Shown: positions 2,430 to 25,151, counted from the first letter of the stretch. The stretch: DNA of 64,000 bases from Acidimicrobiales bacterium (GCA_036397895.1 DASWIA010000047.1:20237-84236); one strand, 5' to 3'. Notes: a model not told the origin generated them from the letters alone. Made by a program: numbers and translations.

Positions 2430-2463
2430 CCCGTCGTCCCGGTCCAGGGCATCGACCTCGATG

Positions 2464-8167: not shown

Positions 8168-8235
8168 GCCGAAGTTCACCTGGCGCCTCGCCGGCAACGC
8201 CGCGGTCGTGATGGACGGGTCAGGGCTCAATCTCA

Positions 8236-9162
8236 TCACCATCGTTGTTCGTAGCGGTTCCGGAGCCAGATGGCGAACCCGTTCATGACGAAGATGAGCA
8301 CGAGCAGCACCAGACTCGCAGCCGCGGCCAGCACGTTCCAACCCTGGCCCGCGGGCAGGCGAGCCCAGGAGAAGATCACCATCGGCATGGCCGTGAACCG
8401 GCCGTGGAGGATCTGCTCGAGCGTCCCCTGAGCGCCGACGAAGAACACACCGCTCACCGCACCGACGAGGAGGAGCGGGGCCGCTTCGCCCGCGGCACGT
8501 GCCAGCGCCAAGACGTTGCCGGTGAGGATCCCCGGGAGCGCGGCGGGAAGCACATGATGCCGGGTGGTCTCCCAGCGGGTGGCGCCGAGAGCGAGGGCAC
8601 CCACACGGATCCCGCTCGGAACCGCCCGGAGGGCCTCCTGGGACGTGATGATCACGATGGGGAGCACCAGAGCAGACAGCGTCAGCCCGCCGGCGATCAC
8701 CGTCCGGCCACCGGTCACGCCGCCGAGTGCCTGGACGAAGATGGCCAGACCCAGCAGCCCGAACACGATGGACGGGACGCCGGCGAGGTTGCGGATGTTG
8801 ACAGAGATGAACCGGGTGAGGCGGGAGTCGCTGGCGTACTCCTCGATGTAGATGGCCGACCCGATCCCCAGCGGGAACGCCACGGCGACGACGATGATCG
8901 AGAGCTGGAGCGTTCCCTTGACGCCCTGCCACACACCAGCGAGCTCCGGGTCGGAGTTCAGTCCCGAGGTCAGGAACGACCAGAGACGTTCGGTGAGGAC
9001 CGACTCGCCGCCGGCGATCATGTCCCACACCAAGGCGGCGAGGATCACGAACGCCAGCACCACCGACAGCACCACGAGGAGGTGGAAGAGCCGGCCCTTC
9101 ACATCGTGACCGCGCCGCGCCAATGAAACGTCACCCACGCCGGCAACGGTGGTGACGGCCAT
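8236..9162 (-). CDS. pstA: Phosphate ABC transporter permease PstA
   Basis: Multi-TM permease with an EAA-type loop ([14 protein letters not shown]), in the position expected within the pstSCAB order. Confidence 0.9.
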
Positions 9163-10094
9163 CAGTACCGCTCCCGGATCCGGCGCACGAACCGGGCGCT
9201 GATCACGTTGAGCAGCAAGGTGACCCCGAAGAGCAGCAGGCCGAGGAAGTACAGGCTCTGGAAGGCGGCGTCGTCACCCTTGACCTGGTCGGTCCCCGCC
9301 CCGAGGGCGGCCATGGCGGCCGTCAGCGTCTGGCCCGGGTCGAAGATCTGGGTGAAGTTCCGGAGCGAGCCGCCCGTGGCGCCCGCGGCGATCGCCACCA
9401 CCATCGTCTCGCCGATGGCCCGCGAGATCCCGATGATGAAGGCGGCGACGATGCCCGACACGGCCGCAGGGAACACCACACGCACGCACGTGGTGGCCTT
9501 GCGGCTGCCCAGCCCGTAGGCCGCTTCGCGCAGCGACGCCGGCACTGCTCGCATGGCGTCTTCGGAGACCGAGGCGATGAGGGGCAAGGTGAGGATCCCG
9601 ACGCCGATCCCCGCCGCGGCCAGGTTGAAGAACGACACGTCGTCGAGGAACCGGCTCAGCAGGTCGGGGGTGATGAAGCTGATGGCGAAGAACCCGATGA
9701 CCACGCTCGGGATCCCGGCGAGCACCTCGATGATCGGTTTGAGCGTCCGTCGAAGACGGGGCGAGGCGTACTCGGAGAGGTAGAAGGCGGCACCGAGCCC
9801 CAACGGAGCGGCGACGACCATGGCCACACCGGTGACGAGGAGGCTGCCGGCGAACAGGGTGAGGAGGTCAAAGGACCCGCGGCGAGGGAACCAGCCGATG
9901 TCCCACAGCGATCCCAGCTCGACCTTCGTGATGAAGCTGGCCGCCTCCCGCGTGAGCGAGACGATGATCAGCAGGCTCACGATGATCGACACCGACGCCG
10001 TGGCCCCGAACACCACCCGCATCGTCTTGTCGCGTCGCATCCGGCGCGCCGTGCCCTGGAGATCGGCCACGGTGAGGGGGGTGGTGCCCACCAT
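9162..10094 (-). CDS. pstC: Phosphate ABC transporter permease PstC
   Basis: Multi-TM permease with an EAA-type loop (REAAYGLGSRKATT). Its stop overlaps the pstA start by 1 nt. Confidence 0.9.
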   Translation of the reverse strand: MVGTTPLTVADLQGTARRMRRDKTMRVVFGATASVSIIVSLLIIVSLTREAASFITKVELGSLWDIGWFPRRGSFDLLTLFAGSLLVTGVAMVVAAPLGLGAAFYLSEYASPRLRRTLKPIIEVLAGIPSVVIGFFAISFITPDLLSRFLDDVSFFNLAAAGIGVGILTLPLIASVSEDAMRAVPASLREAAYGLGSRKATTCVRVVFPAAVSGIVAAFIIGISRAIGETMVVAIAAGATGGSLRNFTQIFDPGQTLTAAMAALGAGTDQVKGDDAAFQSLYFLGLLLFGVTLLLNVISARFVRRIRERY

Positions 10095-10100
10095 GGCGTT

Positions 10101-11171
10101 CTACTCCCGGGTCCCGGTCACACGCCCATCCCAGGCCGAGCGGGTCGCCTCGATGACGGACGCCTCCAGATCGACGTATCCGACCTCGGACACGGACGCC
10201 AACCCCGCCTCGCTCATGTAGAAGTCGATGTAGGCCTGAAGCGATGGGTTGGCCTCTGCCTTGGCCTTGTTCACGTAGATGAACAGCGGCCGGGCGATGG
10301 GGAACTCGCCGCTGGCGATCGTCTCGGGTGTCGGCTCCACGCATCCGCCCCCGCCGTCGACGGCGATGGCCTTGACCGCGTCGGGGTTGGCAGCCACGAA
10401 GGCGAAGCCGACCCAACCAAGGGAGGTCGGGGTCCCCGAGATGGCCTCGACGATCACGTTGTCGTTGGGTGAGGCCTGGTAGTCGGGCCGTGGGTTGGGG
10501 TCCTGGTCGCGGGCCTCGGCCACCCCTTCGAGGGCGATCTCGACGAAGCTGTCGAACGTGCCGGATTCCTCGCCGGGTGCCGACACCACCAGCGGCGCGT
10601 CGGGGTAGGGGGCGTGGCCGGCTCCGAACTCCTCGCCGAGCTCGCTCGCGAGCTCAGCGGCCAGGTCGTTGGCCTCGGTCCAGCTCCCGAAGCCGATCGA
10701 CTCGGCGCCCAGAAGCGCGTAGAGGTCCAGGAAGCTCAGGCAGTCGATCTGGTCGTTGGCGGTGGAGGTGATCACGGAGAGCCCATCGATGGCGATCTTG
10801 AGCTCGATGAACTCGATTCCGTTCGCCGTGCACTTCTCGATCTCCTCGTCCTTGATGGCGCGGGAGGCGTCGGAGACGTCGGACTCGCCGCTGCAGAAGA
10901 TCTCGAAGCCGTCGCCGGTGCCGGGACCGTCGACGGAGATGGCGACGCTGGGGTTGGCGGCCGCGAACTTCTCGGCGTTGCGGGCCGAGATCGGCTCGAC
11001 GGTCGAGGAGCCGGAGACGACGACCTCCCCGGAGAGGGTGGATGAGTCGCCGCCGGTGTCGCCGCCGGCGTCGATCCCGGGACCGTCGTCGGAGCCGCAC
11101 GCGGCTGCGATCAGGGTCAGCGCCACGAGAAGGGCGACGAGGCCGCGGGGCCGGCGAACACGGTGGGACAC
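10101..11171 (-). CDS. pstS: Phosphate-binding lipoprotein PstS
   Basis: GTG start at 11171, preceded by AGGAGGA. The lipoprotein signal is LTLIAAACGSDD. It has a periplasmic-binding-protein architecture and is the first gene of the pst operon. Confidence 0.9.
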   Translation of the reverse strand: MSHRVRRPRGLVALLVALTLIAAACGSDDGPGIDAGGDTGGDSSTLSGEVVVSGSSTVEPISARNAEKFAAANPSVAISVDGPGTGDGFEIFCSGESDVSDASRAIKDEEIEKCTANGIEFIELKIAIDGLSVITSTANDQIDCLSFLDLYALLGAESIGFGSWTEANDLAAELASELGEEFGAGHAPYPDAPLVVSAPGEESGTFDSFVEIALEGVAEARDQDPNPRPDYQASPNDNVIVEAISGTPTSLGWVGFAFVAANPDAVKAIAVDGGGGCVEPTPETIASGEFPIARPLFIYVNKAKAEANPSLQAYIDFYMSEAGLASVSEVGYVDLEASVIEATRSAWDGRVTGTRE

Positions 11172-11234
11172 GGGTGATCCTCCTGGATCGGTGGCGGGGG
11201 ACGTTGCTGTCGACGGTGCACGTTAGGAAGGCAT

Positions 11235-11274
11235 GGTGACGCGCCTCCGGCCAGCGGGTGAACGGGCGGTGAAC
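11235..11274 (-). promoter_or_regulatory. PHO-box-like 11-nt direct repeats upstream of pstS
   Basis: On the minus strand the sequence reads GTTCACCgccc GTTCACCcgct ggccggaggcg cGTCACC. The heptamers at 11268-11274, 11257-11263 and 11235-11241 are in 11-nt phase, about 65-100 nt upstream of the pstS start. They match the actinobacterial PhoP direct-repeat core GTTCACC. Confidence 0.55.
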
Positions 11275-11323
11275 GGCCTGCCAACGTTGGGCTGCGATCA
11301 GATGGGCGCCCAGTCGTGGATGA

Positions 11324-13468
11324 TCAGCCGCTCGGGGTCGCGCGCTCGATGGCCAGCTCTTCGAGCCGGTCGTGGGTGCTGATCCGGGCCACCTCAGGGG
11401 TTCGGTGCCAGGATCCGTCGGGAGCCATCTCCCAGGAGAGCAGATCGTCGGCAAGGTTCACGTCGAGGATCTGGTCGAGACGGGCTTGGAGCTCGACACC
11501 GTCGATGGGCACGACCGCTTCCACCCGGCGGTCGAGGTTGCGGGGCATGAGGTCGGCCGACCCTACGAGGTAGGTGGGCACTCCCTCCCCGCCCCCGTTG
11601 GCGAACAGGAAGATGCGGCTGTGCTCGAGGTAGCGGCCCACGATGGATCGCACCGAGATGTTCTCGCTCAACCCGCTCAGGCCCGGGCGCAGGCAGCACA
11701 TGCCGCGCACGATCAGATCGATCCGCACGCCGTGGCTCGACGCGTCGTACAGCGCCTCGATGATCTTGGCGTCGACCACACCGTTGGTCTTCATGACGAT
11801 GCGACCGGCCGGTCCGCGTGCCGCTTCGCCGGCGATCAGCTCCAGCAGCCGCCCGCGGAGATCGTGCGGTGCGGTGATGAGCCGGCGGTAGGGAACCTTG
11901 CGGCCGAATCCGGTGAGGTAGTTGAACAGCTGGGTGAGGTCGGCACCGATGTCGTCGTCGCAGGTGAACAGCCCGAGGTCCTCATAGAACCGAGCGGTGG
12001 TGGGGTTGTAGTTACCGGTACCGATGTGGCAGTAGCGGCGGATGCCGTCGGCTTCCTGGCGCACGACGAGACAGGTCTTGGTGTGGGTCTTCAGCCCGAC
12101 GACGCCGTACACGACATGCACGCCGGCCTGCTCGAGCTGACGGGCCCAGGCGATGTTGGCCTGCTCGTCGAACCGGGCCTGCACCTCCACGAGCACCGCC
12201 ACCTGCTTGCCCTGCTCGGCGGCCAGCACCAGTGACTTCACGATGGAGCTGTCACCGCTGGTGCGGTAGAGGGTCTGCTTGATGGCCAACACCTTGGGGT
12301 CGAGAGCGGCCTGACGGACGAACTCCCCGACTGATGAGCTGAACGATCCGTACGGGTGGTGCACCAGGACATCGCCGGAGCGGATCTCGGCGAACAGGTC
12401 CTTGTGGTCGTCCTCTCGGGGGGCGAGACGCGGCTGGGTGGTGGCCTTCCACACCGGATCCTTGAGGTCGGGGCGGTCGAGGTGGTGAAGCGCCCACAGG
12501 CCAGCGAGGTCGAGCGGGGCGAGGCGCTCGTAGACGTCGTCCTCGTCGAGATCGAGCTCGCGAACCAGAAGGTCGCGGATCTCGGAGTCGATGTCGGTGG
12601 GAACGTCGAGCCGGACGGCCCGACCGAACCTCCGGCGACGGAGCTCGACCTCCACCGCGCTGAGCAGATCATCGGCCTCCTCCTCCTCGAGAGTGAGGTC
12701 GGCGTTGCGGACGACCCGGAACGGGAAGTGGGCCACGATCTCCATGCCCGGAAAGAGCGCGTCGAGGTGGTGGGAGATGACGTCCTCGAGAGCGATGTAG
12801 GTCTCGTTGTCAGGGAGCACGACGAAGCGAGGGAGCGACGGCGGCACCTTCACCCGGGCGAACAGGTGTCCCGAAGCCCCCGGCTCGGCCACCGACACCG
12901 CCAGGTTGAGCGACAGGTTGGAGATGTAGGGGAATGGGTGGCTGGGATCGACGGCCAGCGGGGTGAGCACCGGGAACAGCCGGTCGTGGAAGACCTCGAC
13001 GAGGTGCTTCCGGTCGCCACCGTCGAGCTCATCCCAGGTGGAGAAGACGATCCCGGCCCCCGCGAGCGCGGGCGCAACCTCGTCGACGAATATCCGGTCC
13101 TCGAGCTCGACCATCTCGGCCACCGCGGCCCGGATGGCCGACAGCTGGCCGCTCGGCGACACGCCGTCGGACTCCGACGACGACACCCCGGCGGCGACGA
13201 GGTCCTTGAGGCCGGCCACCCGTACCTGGAAGAACTCGTCGAGGTTGGTGCCGAAGATGGCCAGGAACTTCGCCCGCTCCAACAACGGCTGGTGATCCTG
13301 GCGCGCCAGGTGGAGCACCCGAGCGTTGAAGTCGAGCCAGCTCAGCTCACGGTCGAGCAGGTGCCGCTGGTCGTCGGGTTCGACGCGGGGCCGCCCGAGG
13401 AACTCGGCTACATCGGGAGCAGGCACCCCACCGAAGGTACTCCGTGCCTGTCGGGGAGCGGCAGGCAC
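11324..13468 (-). CDS. ppk1: Polyphosphate kinase 1
   Basis: 714-aa ORF with the PPK1 N-terminal motif RELSWLDFNARVL, the catalytic His region GLKTHTKTCLVVR, and a C-terminal PLD-like region (GRYLEHSRIF). The exact GTG start is uncertain. Confidence 0.92.
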   Translation of the reverse strand: MPAAPRQARSTFGGVPAPDVAEFLGRPRVEPDDQRHLLDRELSWLDFNARVLHLARQDHQPLLERAKFLAIFGTNLDEFFQVRVAGLKDLVAAGVSSSESDGVSPSGQLSAIRAAVAEMVELEDRIFVDEVAPALAGAGIVFSTWDELDGGDRKHLVEVFHDRLFPVLTPLAVDPSHPFPYISNLSLNLAVSVAEPGASGHLFARVKVPPSLPRFVVLPDNETYIALEDVISHHLDALFPGMEIVAHFPFRVVRNADLTLEEEEADDLLSAVEVELRRRRFGRAVRLDVPTDIDSEIRDLLVRELDLDEDDVYERLAPLDLAGLWALHHLDRPDLKDPVWKATTQPRLAPREDDHKDLFAEIRSGDVLVHHPYGSFSSSVGEFVRQAALDPKVLAIKQTLYRTSGDSSIVKSLVLAAEQGKQVAVLVEVQARFDEQANIAWARQLEQAGVHVVYGVVGLKTHTKTCLVVRQEADGIRRYCHIGTGNYNPTTARFYEDLGLFTCDDDIGADLTQLFNYLTGFGRKVPYRRLITAPHDLRGRLLELIAGEAARGPAGRIVMKTNGVVDAKIIEALYDASSHGVRIDLIVRGMCCLRPGLSGLSENISVRSIVGRYLEHSRIFLFANGGGEGVPTYLVGSADLMPRNLDRRVEAVVPIDGVELQARLDQILDVNLADDLLSWEMAPDGSWHRTPEVARISTHDRLEELAIERATPSG

Positions 13469-14073: not shown

Positions 14074-14268
14074 CTCCTCACCTCGGCTGCCGCCGGTCTC
14101 CTCACGCCGGCCCGAGCCCCCTCCGATAGGCGCTGGAATCATCACCGTTCGTGACCTGAGGGGGCCTGCACCCCGGGTGGGCGAATTCTTTGCGGAATCT
14201 TGGGATCTGTTCGGGTGGTTCGACTCGTACAACAGATGTCAGACGTGCGTGCCGAACGGAGGAGTTCC

Positions 14269-14565
14269 ATGGAGCTCGATTGGATGGCCCGGGGCTTGTG
14301 TCGGGGCCGCCCGGCGGCTGACTTCTTTCCCAGCGATGGCGTGGGAGTGGAGCGAGCCCGTCAGATCTGCGCAGAGTGCCCGGTTTGCACCCGGTGCCTG
14401 GACTACGCACTGGCCGAGCGGATCGATCACGGCGTGTGGGGTGGAACCTCCGAGCGTCAGCGCCGACGCCTCCAGAAGGCACGTCGTGAGGCGGCTACTT
14501 CCGACGCGGAGGTCGGCGGACGGTCGCCCGACGGACCGACGCAGCCGTCGGCCACGCCTAGCTGA
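14269..14565 (+). CDS. WhiB family transcriptional regulator
   Basis: Begins MELDWMARGLCRG and contains CAECPVCTRC (four Cys in WhiB spacing) and the GVWGG turn. ATG at 14269 is preceded by GGAGG. Confidence 0.88.
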   Translation: MELDWMARGLCRGRPAADFFPSDGVGVERARQICAECPVCTRCLDYALAERIDHGVWGGTSERQRRRLQKARREAATSDAEVGGRSPDGPTQPSATPS

Positions 14566-14588: not shown

Positions 14589-14801
14589 TCAGCCTGACGT
14601 GGTATCGCCGGAATCCGTCTCTGCCGCAGCGTCGGACCCGCCGGAGGAATCGGAGTCGGAGGCACCTTCGTCGATGCCCTTCCTGAACTCCCGTTGAGCC
14701 TGCCCGATCGATTTGGCCAGCTTCGGCAGCTTGGCCCCGCCGAAGAGCACCAACAAGATCACCAGGATGACGACGAGTTCTCCTGCTCCAAGGCCAGCCA
14801 C
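14589..14801 (-). CDS. tatA: Twin-arginine translocase subunit TatA/E
   Basis: 70 aa with a GTG start. There is an N-terminal TM helix (GELVVILVILLVLFGGAKLPKLAKSIG), then an amphipathic helix and an acidic tail. Confidence 0.88.
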   Translation of the reverse strand: MAGLGAGELVVILVILLVLFGGAKLPKLAKSIGQAQREFRKGIDEGASDSDSSGGSDAAAETDSGDTTSG

Positions 14802-14857: not shown

Positions 14858-15685
14858 GTGCTGGAGTGCGTCGTCAACGTCAGCGAGGGCCTCGACCCAC
14901 AGGTGATCCGACTGCTGTCGTCGGCCGCCGGCGCTGACCTGTTGGACTGCCACGTGGATCCCCACCACCATCGCAGCGTGCTCACGCTGGTGGGCACCGA
15001 CAGCCCGCGGCGGGTGGCCACGGCCGCCGTCGACCACATCGATCTAGGTCGCCACCGTGGCGCCCACCCCCGCCTCGGGGCGATCGACGTGGTTCCGTTC
15101 GTGGCGCTCGATGGATCGACTCCCGCCGACGCCGCGCTGGCCGCCGACGAGTTCGCCCGGTGGATGAGCGATGAGCACGGCGTGCCGTGCTTCCGCTACC
15201 ACGCTCGCAGCCCGTCGCTTCCCGAGGTGCGCCGCAACGCCTTCCACGGGCGCGGTCCCGACACCGGGCCGGGCTCGCCTCACTCCACCGCCGGCGCCTG
15301 CGCTGTCGGGGACCGTGGGGTGCTGGTCGCTTTCAATGCCTGGCTGACCAGCCCCGACCCCGCTTCGGCACGCCGCGCCGCCGCTCGGGTGCGAGCCGAG
15401 ACCACCGAACGATTCGGTCACCAGGTCGTGCGGACGCTGGGAATGTCGGTGGGAGGCAGAGCCCAGCTGTCGATGAACCTCATCAAACCCGAGGTGTTCG
15501 GTCCCGCCGACGCCGCCGATGCCGCTGAGCGGGCAGCACCGGTGGCCCGCTACGAGCTGGTGGGGCTGGTGCCCGCCACCGTGCTCACCGCAGTGCCGCC
15601 GCACCGGTGGAGCCGGCTCGACCTGGGGTGGAGCTGCACCATCGAGGCCCGTCTGGCCGCCCGCTCACGTCGCGGCGCCACCTGA
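14858..15685 (+). CDS. Glutamate formimidoyltransferase-like protein (FTCD N-terminal domain)
   Basis: GTG start. The N-terminal motif ECVVNVSEG is typical of formiminotransferases (ECVPNFSEG type). At 275 aa, there is no cyclodeaminase domain. Confidence 0.65.
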   Translation: MLECVVNVSEGLDPQVIRLLSSAAGADLLDCHVDPHHHRSVLTLVGTDSPRRVATAAVDHIDLGRHRGAHPRLGAIDVVPFVALDGSTPADAALAADEFARWMSDEHGVPCFRYHARSPSLPEVRRNAFHGRGPDTGPGSPHSTAGACAVGDRGVLVAFNAWLTSPDPASARRAAARVRAETTERFGHQVVRTLGMSVGGRAQLSMNLIKPEVFGPADAADAAERAAPVARYELVGLVPATVLTAVPPHRWSRLDLGWSCTIEARLAARSRRGAT

Positions 15686-15693
15686 CGGATTCC

Positions 15694-15730
15694 GGCGATC
15701 TGTTCAGGCGATCTGTTCAGGCGATCTGGA
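15694..15730. repeat. 13-bp tandem repeat, about 2.8 copies (GGCGATCTGTTCA), anchored on the stop of whiB-like CDS 15717..16004
   Basis: Copies lie at 15694-15706 and 15707-15719, with a partial copy at 15720-15730 inside the CDS. Minus-strand TGAs occur at 15719-15717 (the real stop) and 15706-15704. The next position downstream (15693-15691) reads GGA. Confidence 0.9.
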
Positions 15731-16004
15731 TGCTGGTGCCCTCTTCGGCGGTGCGACGCTCGACGGCGCGCTGGCGACGGATCTTGCGTCGCTCGCGCTC
15801 GCTCCGACCGCCCCAGATGCCGAACTTCTCGCCGTTGGTGATGGCGAAGTCAAGGCACTCGTCGCGCACCACGCACCCCTGGCAGACCGCCTTGGCCTCC
15901 CGGGTGCTGGCGCCGCGCTCGGGAAAGAAGAGATCAGGGTCGACGCCCAGGCAGTTGCTGTACTGCTGCCACGAAAGATCCTGTTCCGGCTTCGTCGTCC
16001 GCAT
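15717..16004 (-). CDS. WhiB family transcriptional regulator
   Basis: Begins MRTTKPEQDLSWQQYSNCLGVDPDLFFP and contains CQGCVVRDEC and GIWGG. ATG at 16004 is preceded by GGGAGG. Confidence 0.9.
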   Translation of the reverse strand: MRTTKPEQDLSWQQYSNCLGVDPDLFFPERGASTREAKAVCQGCVVRDECLDFAITNGEKFGIWGGRSERERRKIRRQRAVERRTAEEGTSIQIA

Positions 16005-16272
16005 CGTTGTGTGCCTCCCTCGCACTCACGACCACGGCAGGGCCCCCCACGACTCCTTCCGGACCGCACTGGTGTAATTACGTTGCTGTGATTCTGGCCC
16101 CTCCAGTAGCGATCCGCAAGAAGAATCTGGAAAACCCCTGGTCAACGCGCCAAAGAAATCCACCCGCTCGCGCCACCCGAGGGGTAGGAGTCACCCGGAT
16201 GAGGTGGTTGAACCAGCCGACAACCCGCAGCGCCGGCACCGTCAGGACTTCGGACGAAGCCGGCGAGCAACG

Positions 16273-17409
16273 TCACAGCGAGCCGGACGAAACCTCTTCC
16301 CAGTCGGCTACCTTCCAATTCTCGCTCACGATGTCGGAGATGGAGTCGTCGTAGCGCAACGTGAAGGTGGGGTTGCCGTTGATCGTGAGCGAGTTCAGCA
16401 CCAACGAGCCGTCGAGGTGCATCTGCCCGCCGTCGACCGTCAGGTCGGTGTCCGGTGCGTAGATGACGCCATTCACCTTGCCGGCCAACGCTCCGGAGCC
16501 CACCGTCATGGCCGCCGAACCCTCCTTCAAGATGCGGAAGTCGGCGCCGGCCCCACCCAGGTTGATCTCAGCACCCGACAGGTTGACCTCGTAGCCGTCG
16601 CCCACGTAGATGATGGCCGGCGGGTTGGAGATCGTCGTGGCACCCGCCGTGAACGAGATGTCCTGGAGGCAACGGAACGGGGTGCCGCCTTGGCCGTCGA
16701 TGGTCGACGGGAAGATGCCTCCCAGCGGACAGGCCTGGCTGTCGCCGCTGCCCGGATCGGTGGGAGCGTCCCACGACTTGGGCCCGTCGCGCTGAACGCC
16801 GTTGTCGCATCCCGAGCAGCTGCCGTTTGGCGTGAAGTAGTGCTGGGCATCACCGCCTCCGCCTCCGTTCACCACGATCGATGAGTTCGAGCCCACCACC
16901 GCGTTGCCGGTATCGGTGGCGCCCGTCGCCGAGTCGTACGACTCCACGTTGAAGTTGCCGTCGCCGTTGAAGACCAAGGCTTGCTGGGTGAAGATTGCGT
17001 AGGGGTACAGAGACTCCTGGCTCACCGTCGCCTCCAAAGTGTGGGTCACGCCGTTGAGGAGACCAGCCGACCGGACCCGCCACTCGAAGTCCGAGATCTT
17101 CGTGGCGGTGTAGTCGAACGTCCCGTCGCCGAAGTCGACATCGCTCACCGAGAACGTTGCCCCCGCTCCGGCGTCGATGCGGTACTTGGCGTCGCTGAGC
17201 CCGCCATCGGCGACCACCAGGGCGCCGGAGAAGTCCTGGGTGCGCCGCACGCTGCTCAGCGTCGACGTGCTGCGGGCGACGAGCGCCACCGACAACATGC
17301 CGACGACGGTCATGATCCCGAGCCCGACGATGAGGTTGCCCGCTTCGCTCTCCTGGTGATGACGGTTCCTCGCCCGGCGGCGAAGAAGATGTCCAAGCAG
17401 TGTCAGCAT
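16273..17409 (-). CDS. PilX-like minor pilin / pilus-associated protein (N-terminal TM, no Glu+5)
   Basis: The N-terminus is HHQESEAG-NLIVGLGIMTVVGMLSVALVA, followed by ALVVADGGL, the pattern of a PilX N-terminal domain. The rest is Gly/Asn/Thr-rich and looks beta-rich. Its ATG at 17409 overlaps the upstream stop (ATGCTGA). Confidence 0.6.
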   Translation of the reverse strand: MLTLLGHLLRRRARNRHHQESEAGNLIVGLGIMTVVGMLSVALVARSTSTLSSVRRTQDFSGALVVADGGLSDAKYRIDAGAGATFSVSDVDFGDGTFDYTATKISDFEWRVRSAGLLNGVTHTLEATVSQESLYPYAIFTQQALVFNGDGNFNVESYDSATGATDTGNAVVGSNSSIVVNGGGGGDAQHYFTPNGSCSGCDNGVQRDGPKSWDAPTDPGSGDSQACPLGGIFPSTIDGQGGTPFRCLQDISFTAGATTISNPPAIIYVGDGYEVNLSGAEINLGGAGADFRILKEGSAAMTVGSGALAGKVNGVIYAPDTDLTVDGGQMHLDGSLVLNSLTINGNPTFTLRYDDSISDIVSENWKVADWEEVSSGSL

Positions 17410-18053
17410 CCGATGCCTCCCGGTAGCCGGTTGCGGATCTCCGCCGAGGTCTGCTCGACGAACTGGCTGCCGACGGGGTCATCGGCCGCGAACACCGTCA
17501 TCTCGACGCGGATCGCGCAGTTGGCGTAGTCGCCCGAGGTCTGGATGGTGGTGATCTCGGCGCCCTGGTCGTCGAAGTAGCGGAGGAACGGGCTCGAGGG
17601 ATCGTTGTCGACCCCGTCGAGCACGACGCGGGTCGACGTGGCGGCGCCGCCCGGCGCGCTGAGGACGCTCCGGGTGAGCGTCGACCCGGTGAGCTGCCAC
17701 CGGATGTGGGTCTGGGTACCGCCGCCGGGTCCGGTCGACATCTCGATGGCGGTGGCGTATGCGTTGACGTCGTCGTGAGGGTTGATGGGGTTGGCGTTGC
17801 GGATGTCGCGTCCGAGCTCGAGGAGGGCGAACCGCACCTTCTCCTGGTTGTTGACCAGCGCCTGCTGGTAGCGGTCGTTGGTGAGCATCGATGCGAACAT
17901 GGCCATGGCCCCCACCATCACAAGGCTCATGACGAGCATGGTGACGGCCAGCTCCACGATGGTGAAGCCGGCCTCCTCGCTCCCGTCGGGGCCCCGCCGA
18001 TCGTCGACCAGCCGGACCACGCGTGTCCGCAGACGCTCGAGTCGTGCGAACAT
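17403..18053 (-). CDS. Prepilin-type N-terminal cleavage/methylation domain protein (minor pilin, PilW-like)
   Basis: The class III signal is SEEAG-FTIVELAVTMLVMSLVMVGAMAMF, with Glu at +5. ATG at 18053 overlaps the upstream stop (ATGA). Confidence 0.75.
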   Translation of the reverse strand: MFARLERLRTRVVRLVDDRRGPDGSEEAGFTIVELAVTMLVMSLVMVGAMAMFASMLTNDRYQQALVNNQEKVRFALLELGRDIRNANPINPHDDVNAYATAIEMSTGPGGGTQTHIRWQLTGSTLTRSVLSAPGGAATSTRVVLDGVDNDPSSPFLRYFDDQGAEITTIQTSGDYANCAIRVEMTVFAADDPVGSQFVEQTSAEIRNRLPGGIGC

Positions 18054-19306
18054 CAGTTGGTCACCACCAAGGAGATCACGGTGACGACGTCGCCGGTGGA
18101 GACCTGCTTCACGGTGATCGACTTGTTGCCGGTCGACCAGGTGGACCACTGGTTCTTCCAGATGGTGTAGCGGTACACGCCGCCGTTGCCGAAGCTGTTG
18201 TCCATCGCCTCGGTGTAGGTGGTTCCCGGCGACGTGGTGATGAGCGCCTGGAAGTCGCCGCAGTCGCCGGTGATCGACACCTCGAGGACCACGTTTCTCA
18301 AGAGTGTGTTGGGGTTGTTCTTCTTCTTGACCGATCCGGGGTCAGCGGTGGCCGCCTGCGTCTGGCACTCGGGCGCGTCCCAATCGGTCACGGCCGTGGC
18401 GATGTTGGACCAGGCGCCGACCACGCCGCTGGTGACGCCCCGGACCCGGAACGCGAACTCCGTTCCGTCCGCCAGGCCCGTTGCGCTGTAGGTCGTGTCG
18501 TCACCGGGGTGGGAATCGGTGATCGCGACCCACGTGAGCTGGCCGTCAGAGCTGAACTGGACTTCCCAGCTGCCGGGGATGGGGCTTCCCGTGACCCAGG
18601 TCAGATCCACCTGGGTAGTCGGGTTCGACACGCTCTTGGTGGCGGTGAGCCCGGTCGGGGTGCCCGGCGTGGGAGCCAGGGTGGTGGTGGTCGAGGGGGA
18701 GGGAGCACCGGCGTTGCCTAACGCGTAGACACCGCCGTGGGCCACGACCTCATGGCTCCCCGAACCGTCGGTCCACGAGATGGTGGCGATCAACCGCTTG
18801 AAGGCGTCGACGTCGCCAGCCGACGTGTCGTGCCACACGATGTCGCGCACGATGGTGTAGTCGAGGCCGTCGACAGCCTCCGTTCCCCCGAGGGGAGTGC
18901 TCTGAGGGCTGGCCACCACGACGGTGTCCCCGCCGTCGTAGGTGGACCGGAACCCGGGCTGGCCGGTGCTGAAGCCGAGCTGGTCCCAGGGGATGGCCTC
19001 GAGCTTCTCGACCTCGCGGCTGGCCAGCGCGGTGGCGTGGGAGCGGGCGTCGGCCACGGCAGTGGCATCCATGGTGGCCAGGAAGACGCTCAGGGTTCCC
19101 ACCACTCCGGTGGCGATGACGGCGAGCGTCACCAGCAGCTCGACGAGGGTGAACCCTTCCTCCCCGGCGGCGCGGGGCGTGCCGCCGCCCGAGCTGGTCG
19201 GGCGCGCGTCGAATCGGCGAGAGGCGGACCCGCCGAGAGCGGCATGGGGACATGGGTCCACTCCTAGGGGATCGGCATGTCGCTGAGCGCGCTTGAGCCC
19301 CGGCAC
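18053..19306 (-). CDS. Modular prepilin-type protein (PilV-like N-domain + FN3-like domain + unknown C-terminal domain)
   Basis: The class III signal is AGEEG-FTLVELLVTLAVIATGVV. An S/T/P linker (APSPSTTTTLAPTPGTP) follows, then an FN3-like segment (LTATKSVSNPTTQVDLTW...YSATGLADGTEFAFRVRGV). The roughly 110-aa tail has two Cys. The GTG start at 19306 gives an unusually long leader and is uncertain. Confidence 0.7.
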   Translation of the reverse strand: MPGLKRAQRHADPLGVDPCPHAALGGSASRRFDARPTSSGGGTPRAAGEEGFTLVELLVTLAVIATGVVGTLSVFLATMDATAVADARSHATALASREVEKLEAIPWDQLGFSTGQPGFRSTYDGGDTVVVASPQSTPLGGTEAVDGLDYTIVRDIVWHDTSAGDVDAFKRLIATISWTDGSGSHEVVAHGGVYALGNAGAPSPSTTTTLAPTPGTPTGLTATKSVSNPTTQVDLTWVTGSPIPGSWEVQFSSDGQLTWVAITDSHPGDDTTYSATGLADGTEFAFRVRGVTSGVVGAWSNIATAVTDWDAPECQTQAATADPGSVKKKNNPNTLLRNVVLEVSITGDCGDFQALITTSPGTTYTEAMDNSFGNGGVYRYTIWKNQWSTWSTGNKSITVKQVSTGDVVTVISLVVTN

Positions 19307-19326
19307 CGGCGGGGGCGGGGCTCAAG
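19292..19326 (-). terminator. 11-bp-stem hairpin between the vWA gene stop and the pilin-like operon
   Basis: CTTGAGCCCCG (19292-19302) pairs with CGGGGCTCAAG (19316-19326) around a 13-nt loop. There is no U-tract. The hairpin overlaps the nominal GTG start of CDS 18053..19306. Confidence 0.35.
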
Positions 19327-19343: not shown

Positions 19344-21386
19344 TCAGAGCCGGGTGGCGGAACGTCCCCTTCCGCCCCGGTGCAGCTTGCGCTTGTGCTC
19401 GAGGAAGTCGACCATCACGTAGTCGCCGAGGCGCTCGGGTGAGCAGAAGAAGGCGCGACCCTTGTTCACCTCGGCCATCTGCTCGACGAAGGGCTGGAAC
19501 CACATGCCGCCTCCCTCGCCCATGAGGGCGAAGGTGTTGATGGTGATGCCGGCCCGAGTGGTGCGGATGACCTCCCGCATCGTCTCGTCGAGCGTCTCCG
19601 GAAGCGGCGGGTAGTGGAATATCGGCTCGACCCCACCGCTGGGGGTGTGGGCGGTGGGCTCGCCGTCGGTGACGAGGAGGATCTGCTTGTGACCGTGCTC
19701 GTGGTCGAGCTGGCGGCGGGCGAGCTGGAGGGCGTGCTGGATGTTGGTCCCGTAGGCGAAGTCCCAGCTCACCTCGGGCAGCGTCTCGTAGGCGAGCGGG
19801 CGGGCGACGAAGCCGAACCCCACCATCCCGAAGAAATCCCGCGGGTACTGCATCTTCACCAGCGTGGACAGGGCCATGGCCAGCTTCTTGGCCGGGAGCC
19901 AGTTGCCCTGCATCGGCATCGACAACGACAGGTCGAGGCACAAGACGGTGGCCGAGCGGGTCAGCACCTCGGTGCGCTCGATCTCGAAGTCGTCAGGGGT
20001 GATGCGCACCGGCGTGCCGCTGCCGGTGCGGCGCACGGCATTTCGCAGGGTGCGCTCGATGTGGAGGTTGAACGGATCGCCCCACTCGTAGGGCTTGGTG
20101 CTGTACTCCCGCTCGTGGCCGGCGCCCGCGAACGCCGCTTCGTGGCGGCCCGCCCGGCCGGCCGTCAGGTGCTGGAAGAGATCCTTCAGCGCGTGCTGGC
20201 CGAGCCGGCGTAGACCGCGAGGTGTGAGCTCCACCCGCCCCTCGTGCTCATCGATGTAGCCCGCTTCCCGCAATGCCTCGGCCAACCGGCTGAGCTGATC
20301 GAGCTGATGGGCGGCGTCGCCACCCAACAGGTCCCGCACCCGGTCGAGGTCCACCTCGTCGAGCAGGCGCGGATCGCCCGCCGCGCTCTCGAGCAGCTGT
20401 TCGAGCGCGTCGAGATCACCGAGCTCCTCCATGAGGTCCATGGCCTGGGCGAACCCGAGGGGGTCGCGGCCGTGCCCCTGGTAAGACCGGTCCCACCCGG
20501 CCTCGGGGAACATCTGGCGCAGGTTCGATCCGAGCTGGTCCATCTGCCAGCGCAGATCCATGTCGGCGTCGAGGAACTGCTGGCTGAGCTGGTGGAGCTG
20601 GGCCCGCTGCTCGGCCGACATCGAGTTGAGCATGGCCTGAGCCGCGGCCATGCGCCGGGCCAGCGCCTCCAGCAGCTCGTCGAGGGTCTGGGGGTTCTCG
20701 GGGAAGAGCTGGCCGTGGCGGGCCATGAAGCCCTCGAAGTCGGGTTCACGGCCGTTGGCTCGGTCGTCGAGCATCTGGTTGAGGTCGGCCAGCATGTCCT
20801 TCATCGCCGCCATCTGCTCGGGGTCGGGGTTGCTCATGGCCCCGGTGACCTGGCGGAAGAACTGGTCGGCCATCTCCTGGCGCAGTTGCTCGCTGAGCTC
20901 GCGGTAGCGCTGCTCGGCCTCGGGCGAGACGAAGTCGTAGCTGTCCAGCGTGCGCATCTGCCCGGCCAGGTCGGGCGGCAGCATGTCGAGGTCGAGGTGA
21001 TGCTCGGTGGCCGTGCTGTCTGCGTTGTCGAGCCGGCGTTGGTCTCCCGACTGGCGCGCCCGCTCGACCATGTCGTCGAGCGCCCGACGCTCCTGATCGA
21101 CGATCTCGCGCAGCTCTTTGGCCATCTCGGCGAACGGCCCGCCGAGATCGGCGTCCTCCAGGCGCTGCCGCTTCGCCGAGCGCAGCCGCTGCATCATCTC
21201 CCTCAGGCCGGCCATCCGCTCGCCGTCGGGGGTGCGCAGGCCGGACTGCATGAGCCGGCGCAGGGCGGCGTTGAGGTCGCCGTGGTAGAGCAGGTCGTCG
21301 GCGAGGTCACCCAGCAGCGCGTCGGCATCGAGAGCAGCCACCTTCTGGCTCCCGTCCCACCGCGAGTAGCGCCACGCCCGGGTCAC
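19344..21386 (-). CDS. vWA domain-containing protein (BchD-like partner of the adjacent AAA+ ATPase)
   Basis: 680 aa with a GTG start. The long helical acidic N-terminal and central region precedes a C-terminal vWA domain with a MIDAS-type DLSLS motif and a later LLVTDGEPT. No signal peptide is visible. Confidence 0.8.
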   Translation of the reverse strand: MTRAWRYSRWDGSQKVAALDADALLGDLADDLLYHGDLNAALRRLMQSGLRTPDGERMAGLREMMQRLRSAKRQRLEDADLGGPFAEMAKELREIVDQERRALDDMVERARQSGDQRRLDNADSTATEHHLDLDMLPPDLAGQMRTLDSYDFVSPEAEQRYRELSEQLRQEMADQFFRQVTGAMSNPDPEQMAAMKDMLADLNQMLDDRANGREPDFEGFMARHGQLFPENPQTLDELLEALARRMAAAQAMLNSMSAEQRAQLHQLSQQFLDADMDLRWQMDQLGSNLRQMFPEAGWDRSYQGHGRDPLGFAQAMDLMEELGDLDALEQLLESAAGDPRLLDEVDLDRVRDLLGGDAAHQLDQLSRLAEALREAGYIDEHEGRVELTPRGLRRLGQHALKDLFQHLTAGRAGRHEAAFAGAGHEREYSTKPYEWGDPFNLHIERTLRNAVRRTGSGTPVRITPDDFEIERTEVLTRSATVLCLDLSLSMPMQGNWLPAKKLAMALSTLVKMQYPRDFFGMVGFGFVARPLAYETLPEVSWDFAYGTNIQHALQLARRQLDHEHGHKQILLVTDGEPTAHTPSGGVEPIFHYPPLPETLDETMREVIRTTRAGITINTFALMGEGGGMWFQPFVEQMAEVNKGRAFFCSPERLGDYVMVDFLEHKRKLHRGGRGRSATRL

Positions 21387-21459
21387 GGCAACCCCACCCA
21401 GTCTCGACGGATGCGCGCACCTTCTGCGGAACTCGATGGTCGGCGGTGCAACACGGTGC

Positions 21460-22854
21460 TCAACGACCCCGGTAGGTGGCCCGGCGACCGCGACTGTCCT
21501 TGTTGAGCCGCTTGGTCAGGTGGAGCCCCTCCAGCACGAACTCGATCGCGGCCGCGGTCTCCGCCGGGGACTCCCCGGCTCCGAGCTCGGCGGCGAGGCT
21601 ACCCAGCGACTCGATCTCAGCGGCGAGGTGGGCGAGCTCGTCGTTGGCGACGTCGTCGCCGGTGTGCACCACGCGCTCCTCGTCGAAGGCGGTGACGACG
21701 GGGCCGAGCTGTTGGGGATCGCACCGCCGGGTGAAGACGTCGCGCACGGCCGTGGCCATGATCGCCGCCACGACGTGCTCCTCGCGTCCCTCCTCCATGA
21801 CCTCGAGCTCGAGCTTGCCGGCGGTGGAGGCCACCAAGGCGTCCAGGTCGGTGATGCGGGGCACGGCCACGTCTTCGCCTCGCTGGAGAGCGCGTCGGAC
21901 CGCCGACGCCACCATCGACTCATGGTTGGTGATCGACAGCCGCACCGACACACCGCTGTGCTGGTTCACGTGCGGCGACTCGCGCGCGAGCTGGCTCAGC
22001 TCGGAGACGATCTCCGACATGAACGGCGGGACGCGCACAGCGACGGGTTCATCGTAGGTGACCGCCTCCTGGTCGACGACGTCCATCTCCAGCTCGGTCT
22101 CGAGGGGGTAGTGGGTGCGGATCTGGGCGCCGAAGCGGTCCTTGAGTGGAGTGATGATGCGACCCCGATTGGTGTAGTCCTCGGGATTGGCGGTGGCCAC
22201 CAGAACCAGATCGAGCGGGAGCCGGATCTTGTGACCGCGGATCTGGATGTCGCGCTCCTCCAGCACGTTGAGCAGGCCCACCTGGATGCGCTCAGCCAGG
22301 TCTGGCAGCTCGTTGATGGCGAAGATGCCGCGGTTGGTGCGGGGCACCAGGCCGTAGTGGAGCGTGAGCTCGTCGGAGAGGTAGCGGCCCTCGGCCACCT
22401 TGATGGGATCGACCTCACCGATGAGGTCGGCGATCGACGTGTCGGGGGTTGCGAGCTTCTCACCGAAGCGGTGGTCGCGGTGCACCCAGTCGATCGGCGT
22501 GTCATCACCCTTGTTCTGCACCAGCTCGCGGGCGTACCGGCTGACCGGAGCGTAGGGGTCGTCGTTGATCTCCGAACCCTCGACGATCGGCATCCACTCG
22601 TCGAGCAGGTGCACGAGGGAGCGGATCATCCGGGTCTTGGCCTGGCCGCGCTCGCCCAGCATCACGATGTCGTGGCCGGCGAGCAGCGCGTGCTCGAGCT
22701 GCGGGAGGACGGTGTCGTCGAACCCCATCACCCCCTCGACGAGCGGCTCGCCGGCGGCGATGCGGTTGGCTGCGTTGAGCCGCAGCTCTTCTTTGACCGG
22801 GACCGACTGCCAGCCGGACGCCCGGAGCTCTGCGAGGGTGGTTGGTTGCGACAT
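21460..22854 (-). CDS. AAA+ ATPase, Mg-chelatase ChlI/BchI-like (MoxR-related)
   Basis: ATG at 22854 (MSQPTTLAELRASGW). The Walker A variant is LGERGQAKT and the Walker B-like motif GIFAINELPDL. VATANPEDYTNRGRIITPLKDRF is typical of this family. Confidence 0.8.
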   Translation of the reverse strand: MSQPTTLAELRASGWQSVPVKEELRLNAANRIAAGEPLVEGVMGFDDTVLPQLEHALLAGHDIVMLGERGQAKTRMIRSLVHLLDEWMPIVEGSEINDDPYAPVSRYARELVQNKGDDTPIDWVHRDHRFGEKLATPDTSIADLIGEVDPIKVAEGRYLSDELTLHYGLVPRTNRGIFAINELPDLAERIQVGLLNVLEERDIQIRGHKIRLPLDLVLVATANPEDYTNRGRIITPLKDRFGAQIRTHYPLETELEMDVVDQEAVTYDEPVAVRVPPFMSEIVSELSQLARESPHVNQHSGVSVRLSITNHESMVASAVRRALQRGEDVAVPRITDLDALVASTAGKLELEVMEEGREEHVVAAIMATAVRDVFTRRCDPQQLGPVVTAFDEERVVHTGDDVANDELAHLAAEIESLGSLAAELGAGESPAETAAAIEFVLEGLHLTKRLNKDSRGRRATYRGR

Positions 22855-23018
22855 CGCCCCAACGCTAACCCTCCCCGCGGCTCCCACCCTGTCGGCGCGT
22901 CGACCCACCCCCGTTGCCCGGCCGTCCACTACACCTCGTCTACACCTCGTCCGGCAGGTTGGCGCGCTCTGACCTCGCTCCGAGGTCGGCGCGGATCGAC
23001 CACTACCCTTCCTCGCCC

Positions 23019-25151
23019 ATGGACCTCGGGGGAAAGTGGCGGGCCACACGAGGTGATGACGCGCTGCGCCGTGAGTTCGCTGACCCCGACTTCGACGACC
23101 GCTCGTGGCATGAGCTTCCCGTCCCCGGGCACTGGCGCAACGATCCGGCGTTTGCCAACTGCGACGGCCCCGTCCTCTACCGCCGAACCTTCACCGCCCC
23201 TGCCCCCGCCAGCGACCGGCGTTGGTGGCTGACCCTCGAGGGGTGCTTCTACCAGGGCGATGTGTGGTTGGACGGCGCCTACCTCGGTGACACCGAGGGC
23301 TACTTCTTCCCCCACCACTTCGAGGTCACCGATCTGCTACGCGAGCGAGACCATCACGTGCTGGCGGTCGAGCTCACCTGCGCGCCCCAGAACGACCGGG
23401 CAGCCAAACGGAACATCACCGGGGTGTTCCAGCACTGGGACTGCATCGACCCCGACTGGAACCCCGGTGGCATCTGGCGACCGGTCATGCTGAACGAGAC
23501 TGGACCGGTGCGCATCGCCCGGCTCCGGGCCTCCTGCACCGAGGCAAGCACGGAGCGGGCGATCGTGTCGCTGCAGGCCGAGCTCGACACCGAGGTGGGG
23601 CGCGGCGCCCACATCCTCACCACCGTCGGCGACGTCGATCACACCCAGGACGTGACCCTGGCGGCGGGAACCAACCGAGTCGAGTGGACGGTGGCGGTCG
23701 CTGATCCTGACCTGTGGTGGCCGCGCTCGCTCGGTGGTCAGCCGCTCTACGACGTCGAGGTCAGCGTGACCGCGGCTGACGCTGACGCCGACGCCAGTGA
23801 CCACCGCTCGCTTCGGATGGGTTTGCGCAGCGTCGAGATGCGCAACTGGGTGTTCCGGGTCAACGGCGAGCGCATGTTCCTCAAGGGCTCCAATGCGGCG
23901 CCGGTGCGCCAAGACCTGGGCGATGCCTCGGTCGAGGACATGCGTCGCGACGTGGGTCTGGCCGTCGACGCCGGGCTCGACCTGTTGCGGGTCCACGCCC
24001 ACATCTCACGCCCCGAGCTGTACGACGCGGCCGACGAGGCCGGCTTGGTGATCTGGCAGGACTTCCCGCTCCAGTGGGGATACGCACGGGGGCTGCGGCC
24101 CCAGGCCGTCCGACAGGTGGACGCGGCGATCGACCTGCTGGCCCAACATCCCTCCATCGCCATGTGGTGCGGTCACAACGAGCCGATGGCGATCAGCGAG
24201 ACCGAGATCCCCGAGCGCACGATCGACATGGCCAAGCTGGCGGTGAAGGTGGCCCGCCACCAGCTGTTCCCCACCTGGAACAAGAGCGTGCTCGACCGAT
24301 CGATCAAACGGGCGTTCGAGAAGGGCGACGGCACCCGGCCCGTCATCGCCCACTCGGGCGTGTGGCCTCACGCCCCCCAGTTCGACGGCACCGACACCCA
24401 CGTTTACTTCGGCTGGTATCACGGCCACGAGCGGGAGTTCCCCGCCTTCCTCCGTGCCGCGCCACGGATGGCGCGCTTCGTCACCGAGTTCGGGGCGCAG
24501 GCCATCCCACCCAACGACGACTTCATCGATGTGGCGTCGTGGCCCGAGCTCGACTGGGACCAGCTGCGACACAAGCGGAACCTCCAGAAGAACGTGTTCG
24601 AACGCGTGGTGCCGCCCGGAGACTTCGCCACCTACGCCGAGTGGAAGGCCGCCACTGGCGAGTACCAGGCCACGGTGATCCGCCATCACATCGAGGCGCT
24701 GCGCAAGCTGAAGTACCGCCCCACCGGCGGGTTCTGCCAGTTCTCCTTCAACGACGCCTACCCGTCGGTGACGTGGTCGGTCCTTGATCACCTGCGGGCA
24801 CCGAAGCCGGGCTACGAGGCGCTGATCGAAGCGTGCCGCCCGGTGATCGTGGTGTGTGACCGCCTACCCGAGCTGGTGCGGCCCGGCGACACACTGGTGG
24901 CCGATGTCCATGTGGTGTCGGATCTACGGACCCCGCTGAGCGGTGGGCGCTGCACGGCGCGCCTGTCATGGGACGGGGGCGAGCACACGTGGGGCTGGGA
25001 AGGCGACGTCGACATTGACTCGGTGTGCCACGTCGGGCGAGTCGAGGCGGTGGTACCCGACGTATCGGGCACCCTGCAGCTCGATCTCACGTTCGACGCC
25101 GGCGAGATCACCGCCTCCAACCGCGACACCACCCGCATCGTCGCCGGCTGA
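23019..25151 (+). CDS. Glycoside hydrolase family 2 protein (beta-mannosidase/beta-galactosidase-like)
   Basis: ATG at 23019. The N-terminal sugar-binding region contains DDRSWHELPVPGHW. The TIM-barrel shows WQDFPLQW and an acid/base-type MWCGHNEP. Confidence 0.75.
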   Translation: MDLGGKWRATRGDDALRREFADPDFDDRSWHELPVPGHWRNDPAFANCDGPVLYRRTFTAPAPASDRRWWLTLEGCFYQGDVWLDGAYLGDTEGYFFPHHFEVTDLLRERDHHVLAVELTCAPQNDRAAKRNITGVFQHWDCIDPDWNPGGIWRPVMLNETGPVRIARLRASCTEASTERAIVSLQAELDTEVGRGAHILTTVGDVDHTQDVTLAAGTNRVEWTVAVADPDLWWPRSLGGQPLYDVEVSVTAADADADASDHRSLRMGLRSVEMRNWVFRVNGERMFLKGSNAAPVRQDLGDASVEDMRRDVGLAVDAGLDLLRVHAHISRPELYDAADEAGLVIWQDFPLQWGYARGLRPQAVRQVDAAIDLLAQHPSIAMWCGHNEPMAISETEIPERTIDMAKLAVKVARHQLFPTWNKSVLDRSIKRAFEKGDGTRPVIAHSGVWPHAPQFDGTDTHVYFGWYHGHEREFPAFLRAAPRMARFVTEFGAQAIPPNDDFIDVASWPELDWDQLRHKRNLQKNVFERVVPPGDFATYAEWKAATGEYQATVIRHHIEALRKLKYRPTGGFCQFSFNDAYPSVTWSVLDHLRAPKPGYEALIEACRPVIVVCDRLPELVRPGDTLVADVHVVSDLRTPLSGGRCTARLSWDGGEHTWGWEGDVDIDSVCHVGRVEAVVPDVSGTLQLDLTFDAGEITASNRDTTRIVAG

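Follow-up and report, generated by a model that had tools for sequence, protein, structure and literature searches.

The stretch analyzed here, 64,000 nucleotides (nt) from the metagenome-assembled genome of an uncultured Acidimicrobiales bacterium (GCA_036397895.1, DASWIA010000047.1:20237-84236; hereafter the window), contains a trio of overlapping genes on the minus strand, denoted P1, P2 and P3, that encode putative minor pilins. The trio is real at the sequence level. The three open reading frames (ORFs) lie on the minus strand where the initial annotation of this DNA had placed three coupled genes; all are intact, with their overlapping stop and start codons preserved, and a gene caller applied to the source contig returns identical calls (417, 216 and 378 amino acids, aa). 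P3 is identical to the NCBI third-party annotation entry VGA13_09640 and is located on ENA contig ERZ27256989:k141_560713. The P2/P3 junction is ATGCTGA at 17403-17409, as first described. The P1/P2 junction, previously read as ATGA at 18053, is actually TGATG (stop TGA at 18055-18053, ATG at 18053-18051), a 1-nt overlap, and P2 therefore spans 17403-18053. The GC content at third codon positions (GC3) of the trio is 0.88-0.92, the same as in host genes, and the overall GC content of the window is 65-72%. The genes and their features are as follows (a slash marks the cleavage site in signal sequences).

18053..19306, minus strand: P1, PilV/GspI-like modular putative minor pilin, 417 aa as called
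19139..19156, minus strand: class III signal core of P1, G/FTLVE, from a pattern scan
18395..18661, minus strand: FN3 domain of P1, aa 216-304, Pfam fn3 (PF00041)
18056..18394, minus strand: C-terminal Ig/FN3-like beta-sandwich of P1, with C314, C349 and a Lys/Asn motif
17403..18053, minus strand: P2, PilW/GspJ-like putative minor pilin, 216 aa
16273..17409, minus strand: P3, PilX/GspK/ComZ-like putative cap subunit, 378 aa
16333..16617, minus strand: DUF7305 (PF23981) of P3, aa 265-359

Prepilin signals and domain architecture

A class III signal is taken to comprise Gly at -1, a hydrophobic residue at +1, Glu at +5 and, behind these positions, a hydrophobic helix about 20 residues long. P1 (AGEEG/FTLVELLV at 19139-19156, cleavage site between G51 and F52) and P2 (SEEAG/FTIVELAV at 17952-17969, cleavage site between G29 and F30) both possess all of these elements, including the Glu at +5 that had been pointed out for them; the signal sequences are EEG/FTLVELLVTLAVIATGVVG for P1 and EAG/FTIVELAVTMLVMSLVMVG for P2. 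A six-frame pattern scan of the window yields four motif matches, and only those of P1 and P2 are plausible. The remaining two (at 50932 and 49622) fall in frames inside the genes of a UvrD helicase and an AMP-binding enzyme, have no hydrophobic tail and were rejected. The N-methyl profiles, which the initial annotation had named as a check on these signals, give a divided result: P1 passes NCBIfam TIGR02532 (19.8 bits, cut-off 16.3), P2 narrowly fails it (15.3 bits), and both stay below the cut-off of Pfam N_methyl (PF07963; 19.9 bits for P1 and 19.4 bits for P2, cut-off 21.2). Homologues of P1 and P2, including the P2 homologue on a contig described below (P0028), carry unmarked precomputed N_methyl matches (E <= 1e-5). 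Profile support for prepilin signals in P1 and P2 thus appears real but marginal. The N-terminus of P3 reads SEAG/NLIVGLGIMTVVGML after a basic leader; Gly24 is invariant in 26 homologues, and Glu at +5 occurs in none of the 26. Of the PilX-like N-terminus previously ascribed to P3, the SEAG sequence is present, but the PilX_N profile does not match.

P1 consists of a long leader, a pilin head (about aa 52-196), a Ser/Thr/Pro-rich linker (aa 197-215), an FN3 domain (aa 216-304) and a terminal beta-sandwich (aa 305-417). The modular layout proposed at the outset is borne out by the fn3 match, by a structural model and by 13 homologues, all of which have the signal, a head of about 145 aa, the Ser/Thr/Pro linker and FN3 and end in a domain with two invariant Cys. 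The FN3-like segment, first placed at about 18389-18664, coincides with the Pfam match (27.2 bits, above the cut-off of 25), and the P1 family profile, compared with the PDB, matches many solved FN3 domains and nothing but FN3 domains. The structures of P1 and P3 were modeled with AlphaFold2 (AF2) as single chains from shallow alignments (26 and 12 sequences). The P1 model (predicted local distance difference test, pLDDT, 77.8) comprises a helix (54-103), a sheet (strands between 126 and 194), a disordered linker and two beta-sandwiches. In the PDB it matches tandem FN3/Ig proteins, the alignments extending over about 220 columns, and the last domain of P1 is therefore Ig/FN3-like as well; its Cys residues C314 and C349 are invariant in homologues. 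The segment KKKNNPNTLL within this domain had been singled out as a locally AT-richer patch. Its position (18299-18328) and low GC content (43%) hold, yet it lies inside a VxKKSxxxL motif conserved in the family and is therefore no anomaly: a foreign insertion is ruled out in favor of a conserved Lys/Asn motif. One P1 homologue (P0045) is named PilV by JGI. By its sequence P1 appears PilV/GspI-like, but it is not a PilV member at the equivalog level. It fits the published definition of a modular pilin, in which a pilin module is joined to a domain with no specific tie to pilus biology, and its class of architecture is among those catalogued there (PMC8179133). The AF2 models of both P1 and P3 conform to the pilin fold, a long N-terminal helix followed by an antiparallel sheet.

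In the P2 family, G-1 and E+5 are invariant and a C-terminal Cys pair (C179 and C216 in P2) is conserved. Among the NCBIfam models P2 comes closest to the pseudopilins HpsC (E 1e-7, at the N-terminus) and GspJ (E 1e-4), although neither score reaches its cut-off, and one P2 homologue has a faint T2SSJ match (E 0.085). Aligned with hhalign, the P2 family matches E. coli GspJ with 88.7% probability over 109 columns, apparently extending past the N-terminal helix, as against only about 20-46 columns each for E. coli GspG, GspH, GspI and GspK. A sequence-profile search of the PDB returns no solved relative of P2. These alignments suggest that P2 resembles PilW/GspJ.

For P3 the AF2 model is confident (pLDDT 83.5, predicted template modeling score 0.72). 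It consists of a long helix (21-79), a four-stranded sheet (85-133), a beta-solenoid (about 139-354) and a final strand (361-373); the order of sheet, solenoid and last strand, as read from the strand order of the model, would fit a ComZ-type arrangement. The sole Pfam match is DUF7305 (40.1 bits, cut-off 27), shared by 25 of 26 family members; a literature search on DUF7305 returned no papers. Foldseek comparison of the model with the PDB gives ComZ (6QVI) as the best match (E 9e-7 to 6e-5, probability 1.0), followed by the ice-binding beta-solenoids 4NU2, 3VN3 and 3UYU. A sequence-profile search of the PDB finds no solved relative and no sequence-level similarity to ComZ. The PilX_N profile gives no match, and the link between P3 and PilX/GspK is drawn from the ComZ fold match; some P3 homologues are named PilX by JGI. 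In the model, a pilin-like fold is joined to a triangular beta-solenoid of ice-binding type, a combination in which P3 resembles the ComZ/solenoid-PilX class. Some P3 homologues (P0029, at 10001-11299 of locus L002, as well as P0026, P0027 and P0030) contain an Asp/Asn-rich insertion of about 60 aa inside the solenoid. Its repeats (for example DDSDDDNDG) resemble DxDxDG calcium-binding repeats and are reminiscent of the calcium site of PilY1.

Genomic context of the trio in relatives and in the window

The trio recurs together, in the same order and with the same overlaps, in about a dozen distinct loci, all of them from metagenomes or metagenome-assembled genomes (MAGs) labeled Acidimicrobiia or Actinomycetota. 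Five of the trio loci are found among GTDB species representatives, all MAGs. An exhaustive profile search of the family yields 144 clusters (50% identity) at E <= 1e-30 and 2019 at E <= 1e-3; the best matches are full-length, every named member derives from an Acidimicrobiia/Actinomycetota MAG, and the NCBI records checked read 'hypothetical protein'.

In three loci the trio forms the 3' end of a type IV pilus (T4P) cluster, next to aroC. The contig of P0028 (JGI 3300047160) carries three N_methyl genes of major-pilin size, a Wzy_C protein, PilD, PilM, PilO, a small ORF and the trio, followed by aroC-aroK-aroB-aroQ-pepQ-efp-nusB. Loci L009 and L002 contain the same PilD-PilM/N-PilO block together with the aro operon, and in all three cases PilD (Peptidase_A24) lies in the same cluster, at most 10 kb upstream of the trio. 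Four further loci retain the adjacency to aroC only. In L005, L015, L016 and the window, the cassette stands alone among housekeeping genes, with no link to T4P assembly genes.

We note several additional features of these loci. On the P0028 contig, the Wzy_C/TPR protein (606 aa, 2109-3929) is encoded between the major pilin genes and pilD and is possibly an O-antigen-ligase-like enzyme of pilin glycosylation. L009 (4884-7975, minus strand) and L002 (4771-7880) harbor a second, divergently oriented V-W-X-like trio between the PilO block and the FN3 trio. The first protein of this second set is a pilin of 359 aa with a CarboxypepD_reg module (GFAMVE), the second a pilin of 193 aa (GFGMIE), and the third, 474 aa long and PilX-like, matches nothing in Pfam. 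L016 and L015 belong to more distant relatives. L016 (4887-11332) contains two tandem trios whose first proteins carry TIG and fn3, respectively, and the first protein of the L015 cassette (7430-11377) has 645 aa; neither locus has a pil gene within 10 kb. In a single case, L004 (1-8092), genes of the TadE and Tad (PF13400) families, which belong to a different pilus system, are located immediately upstream of the cassette. An assignment of the trio to the Tad-type pseudopilins was rejected, as the signals are of the GFTxxE type and Tad genes are nearby only in L004.

Essentially every ORF of the window whose composition looked coding was annotated with Pfam. The content of the window is otherwise housekeeping: pst/phoU/ppk, enzymes of the tricarboxylic acid cycle and of purine metabolism, groES/EL, tsaBDE and UvrD. 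The trio sits between a MoxR-VWA gene pair and whiB. Directly downstream, an FTCD_N gene (14858-15685) and a TatA-like ORF (14589-14801, minus strand) lie between two WhiB genes (15717-16025, minus strand, and 14200-14565, plus strand). Upstream, a MoxR-type AAA+ ATPase and a 680-aa VWA protein are encoded at 19344-23049 on the minus strand; the domains of this pair are PF27098 (Rv0959_3rd) and PF27532 (Mb0984_helical), which we take to mark a conserved actinobacterial MoxR-VWA pair. Searches for RNA genes, promoters and terminators in the trio region returned nothing but one hairpin, and the window contains no tRNA and no Rfam match.

19292..19326, minus strand: GC-rich hairpin between the VWA gene and P1 (-46.9 kcal/mol, z -4.8)

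The hairpin holds a perfect 11-bp inverted repeat (CTTGAGCCCCG / CGGGGCTCAAG) with no T-run after it. The 37 nt from the VWA stop to the called GTG start of P1 are taken up by the hairpin, and this GTG lies within its 3' arm. It may be a terminator or processing element that sets the trio off from the MoxR-VWA pair.

The short distance on the same strand could be read as a sign that the trio, the MoxR-type ATPase and the VWA protein form one system, the more so as VWA modules are known in PilY1 and in PilB of Streptococcus sanguinis (PMC8179133). Against this, neither MoxR nor VWA homologues are found near the trio in any other trio-bearing locus, the pair presumably is a conserved actinobacterial unit in its own right, a strong hairpin stands between the two units, and PADLOC gives no match, which likewise led us to reject a defence system. 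A joint system has a negligible probability, and we rejected a functional link to the MoxR-VWA pair, as the adjacency is not conserved.

The same surroundings bear on a second explanation, according to which the trio is a displaced and functionless remnant that was cut from a pilus cluster by rearrangement. Most cassettes of relatives are indeed located beside aroC, a pil cluster or both, in contrast to the MoxR-VWA/whiB setting and the lack of any pil gene in the 64 kb considered here. A decaying remnant is nevertheless highly improbable: the three ORFs are intact and their overlaps kept, all invariant positions of the families are retained, including the Cys pairs and G-1, GC3 is as in host genes, and stand-alone cassettes recur in other lineages (L005, L015 and L016), as expected of minor-pilin operons.

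The trio as a candidate minor-pilin complex

We consider it probable that P1, P2 and P3 together form the complex of core minor pilins of a type IV pilus; the host is taken to be a monoderm member of the Acidimicrobiales, an assumption made because of its Actinomycetota affiliation. Of this reading, the analysis shows the signals and domain architecture, the similarity of the folds, the overlaps between the genes, the conservation of the cassette and its linkage to T4P genes in relatives. The initial annotation had suggested a priming or tip complex whose machinery is encoded elsewhere, and this suggestion gains support because the proteins resemble their counterparts in known complexes, the genes follow the canonical V-W-X/I-J-K order and overlap, as is typical of minor-pilin genes, and three contigs of relatives link the trio to T4P genes. 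An assembly machinery in this genome may be expected by analogy with these relatives and with the type IVa pilus (T4aP) genes reported in free-living Acidimicrobiia MAGs (PMC12008989).

Several results weigh against this interpretation. The Pfam survey found no PilB, PilC, PilD, PilM, PilN, PilO, PilT, PilQ, Tad or other pilus assembly gene in the 64 kb, in line with what had been noted at first sight, and neither a prepilin peptidase nor a major pilin in the same 64 kb. For PilV, GspJ, GspI and Pfam N_methyl, no score reaches the curated cut-off: PilV (TIGR02523) matches P1 with E 3e-7 and 31 bits against a cut-off of 52.2, covering only model positions 2-53, and GspJ (TIGR01711) reaches 22.3 against 64.85 for P2. 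Pfam PilX_N (PF14341) does not match P3 and gives a faint match (E 0.03) in one of 26 family members. The structural matches of P3 have template modeling (TM) scores of only 0.27-0.35, with a global TM of 0.27-0.30 and a root-mean-square deviation of 12 A for ComZ. Finally, the leader of P1 is unusually long, with 50 aa as called or 35 aa from the next in-frame GTG. The true start of P1, and hence its leader length, is uncertain because the called GTG sits in the 3' arm of the hairpin and the next in-frame GTG is at 19261.

If the trio acts as a minor-pilin complex, cleavage, complex formation, tip location and ligand binding can be envisaged by analogy with GspI-J-K and FimU-PilV-W-X. P1, P2 and P3 would insert in the membrane via their N-terminal helices, and a PilD-type prepilin peptidase, encoded elsewhere in the genome, would cut P1 and P2 after the Gly. 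The helices would then associate into a small P1-P2-P3 complex with P3 on top; that P3 has no Glu at +5 would fit this position, because its absence is expected for a subunit with no other subunit above it. The complex would prime the polymerization of major pilins beneath it and remain at the tip of the pilus. The beta-solenoid of P3 may cap or plug the tip, a role played by PilY1 elsewhere, and the FN3 and Ig-like tandem of P1, carried on the flexible Ser/Thr/Pro linker, may project a surface for adhesion to a putative ligand.

The resemblance of P2 to HpsC and GspJ, including the alignment to GspJ, together with an I-J-K-like gene order and overlaps as in operons of type II secretion systems (T2SS), would also be expected if the trio formed the tip of a short secretion pseudopilus, either T2SS-like or serving an Hps-like export of polysaccharides, rather than of an extended surface pilus. 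The HpsC and GspJ scores are far below the family cut-offs, however, and the host is presumably monoderm. Moreover, no secretin, GspC, GspL or GspM family occurs in any listed locus, and the machinery linked to the trio in relatives is T4aP-like, with PilM/PilN/PilO and three genes of major-pilin size. A pseudopilus is accordingly very unlikely.

A different function is suggested by ComZ, the top structural match of P3. This protein binds DNA and is paired with an adjacent GspI-like pilin (PMC6561018), and one of two cyanobacterial sets with a solenoid-bearing PilX is specific for competence (bioRxiv 10.64898/2026.02.12.705559). The trio might therefore be the tip of a DNA-uptake pilus and function in natural transformation instead of adhesion; P3 would then be the DNA receptor, like ComZ, and P1 its partner, like PilA2. 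However, P3 and ComZ show no similarity at the sequence level, and the lysines with which ComZ binds DNA cannot be placed on P3. The window yielded no family of the comEA/comEC type, and the FN3-Ig tandem of P1, with its exchange for TIG or CarboxypepD_reg in paralogous cassettes, looks more like the diversification of an adhesin. We regard a role in competence as unlikely.

Returning to the minor-pilin complex, we tentatively suggest that uncultured Acidimicrobiia may use exchangeable V-W-X tip cassettes, each with a DUF7305 cap in place of PilY1 and a PilV-like subunit bearing FN3, TIG or CarboxypepD_reg. Scattered or duplicated in the genomes, such cassettes would provide one monoderm T4P machine with differing tip specificities. 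If so, the copy in the window would represent an alternative tip encoded at a site of its own and perhaps under its own regulation, and core minor pilins of actinobacterial type IVa pili would thereby be described for the first time. The proposed role offers a functional reading, as pilus-tip proteins of Acidimicrobiia, for a sizeable family of 'hypothetical' proteins and for Pfam DUF7305. It also extends the solenoid-cap architecture of ComZ and cyanobacterial PilX to the Actinomycetota, a phylum in which type IV pili are barely studied and whose Acidimicrobiia members are mostly uncultured. For environmental Acidimicrobiia, the three-gene cassette is a compact annotation marker of pilus tip complexes.

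The family is real and previously unnamed; its novelty is modest, as modular pilins with FN3, solenoid-bearing PilX/ComZ caps and multiple minor-pilin sets have already been described. Nor is a new principle involved: priming complexes are as well established as modular pilins and multiple minor-pilin sets. The initial annotation had stated that the find would lose novelty if homologues turned out to reside in ordinary T4P clusters. The trio is the last part of such a cluster in three loci, and in others, as in the window, it stands alone. By that measure novelty is lost: homologues do reside in ordinary T4P clusters, and scattered minor-pilin operons are normal for T4aP.

Comparison with known minor-pilin systems

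The closest organizational parallels are the FimU-PilV-PilW-PilX and GspH-I-J-K sets. The trio shares with them the V-W-X/I-J-K order and the overlapping genes (E. coli gspH-I-J-K overlap by 4-8 nt), as well as the distribution of signals, with G/F..E in the first two subunits and no Glu at +5 in the last. The alignment of P2 with GspJ may reach the globular domain. As with the trio, these operons may stand apart from the motor genes, which is the rule in Pseudomonas, Neisseria and Myxococcus. The trio differs in its presumably monoderm actinobacterial host and in family scores that are all below cut-off. No fourth gene of the FimU/GspH type adjoins it in the window, and PilY1 is not present. 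P1 has two additional beta-sandwiches, and in P3 a beta-solenoid replaces the alpha-domain of GspK.

Modular pilins occur widely (over 1,200 proteins in 264 architectures), and FN3 (IPR003961) is among the 15 commonest additions (PMC8179133). Like PilB and PilC of S. sanguinis described in that study, P1 has an N-terminal pilin module and, behind a linker, a domain without pilus-specific character. The graft of P1 consists of FN3 and an uncharacterized second beta-sandwich, in contrast to a vWA or lectin domain, and it is borne by a PilV-like core minor pilin whose gene belongs to a V-W-X operon. CofB and TcpB of type IVb pili are likewise large minor pilins with beta-rich C-terminal domains on a linker, which initiate assembly and sit at the tip. 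CofB acts as a homotrimer in type IVb systems, whereas the trio would be a heterotrimer-type set in a type IVa-like context.

With respect to P3, the nearest counterpart is the ComZ-PilA2 pair of Thermus thermophilus (6QVI, PMC6561018). ComZ has a GspK-like pilin fold with an inserted solenoid resembling 4NU2, and it pairs with the adjacent GspI-like pilin at the tip (PMC6561018). Both P3 and ComZ thus combine a pilin-like fold with a large, triangular, ice-binding-like beta-solenoid, have a non-canonical signal, are encoded beside a GspI-like pilin, and have a proposed position at the tip. The solenoid of P3 is much smaller than that of ComZ (about 215 aa versus about 380 aa), no sequence similarity is detectable, and the TM score is about 0.3. 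Cyanobacteria possess solenoid-bearing PilX proteins in two alternative core sets per genome, and their solenoid has been proposed to act as a PilY1-like plug (bioRxiv 10.64898/2026.02.12.705559). The parallels include the presence of several V-W-X sets per genome, matched here by the second sets in L009/L002 and L016, and the best NCBIfam match of P2, the cyanobacterial pseudopilin HpsC. Phylum and envelope differ, no FimT member adjoins the trio, and in the Acidimicrobiia cassettes the variable module (FN3, TIG or CarboxypepD_reg) is located on the PilV-like subunit.

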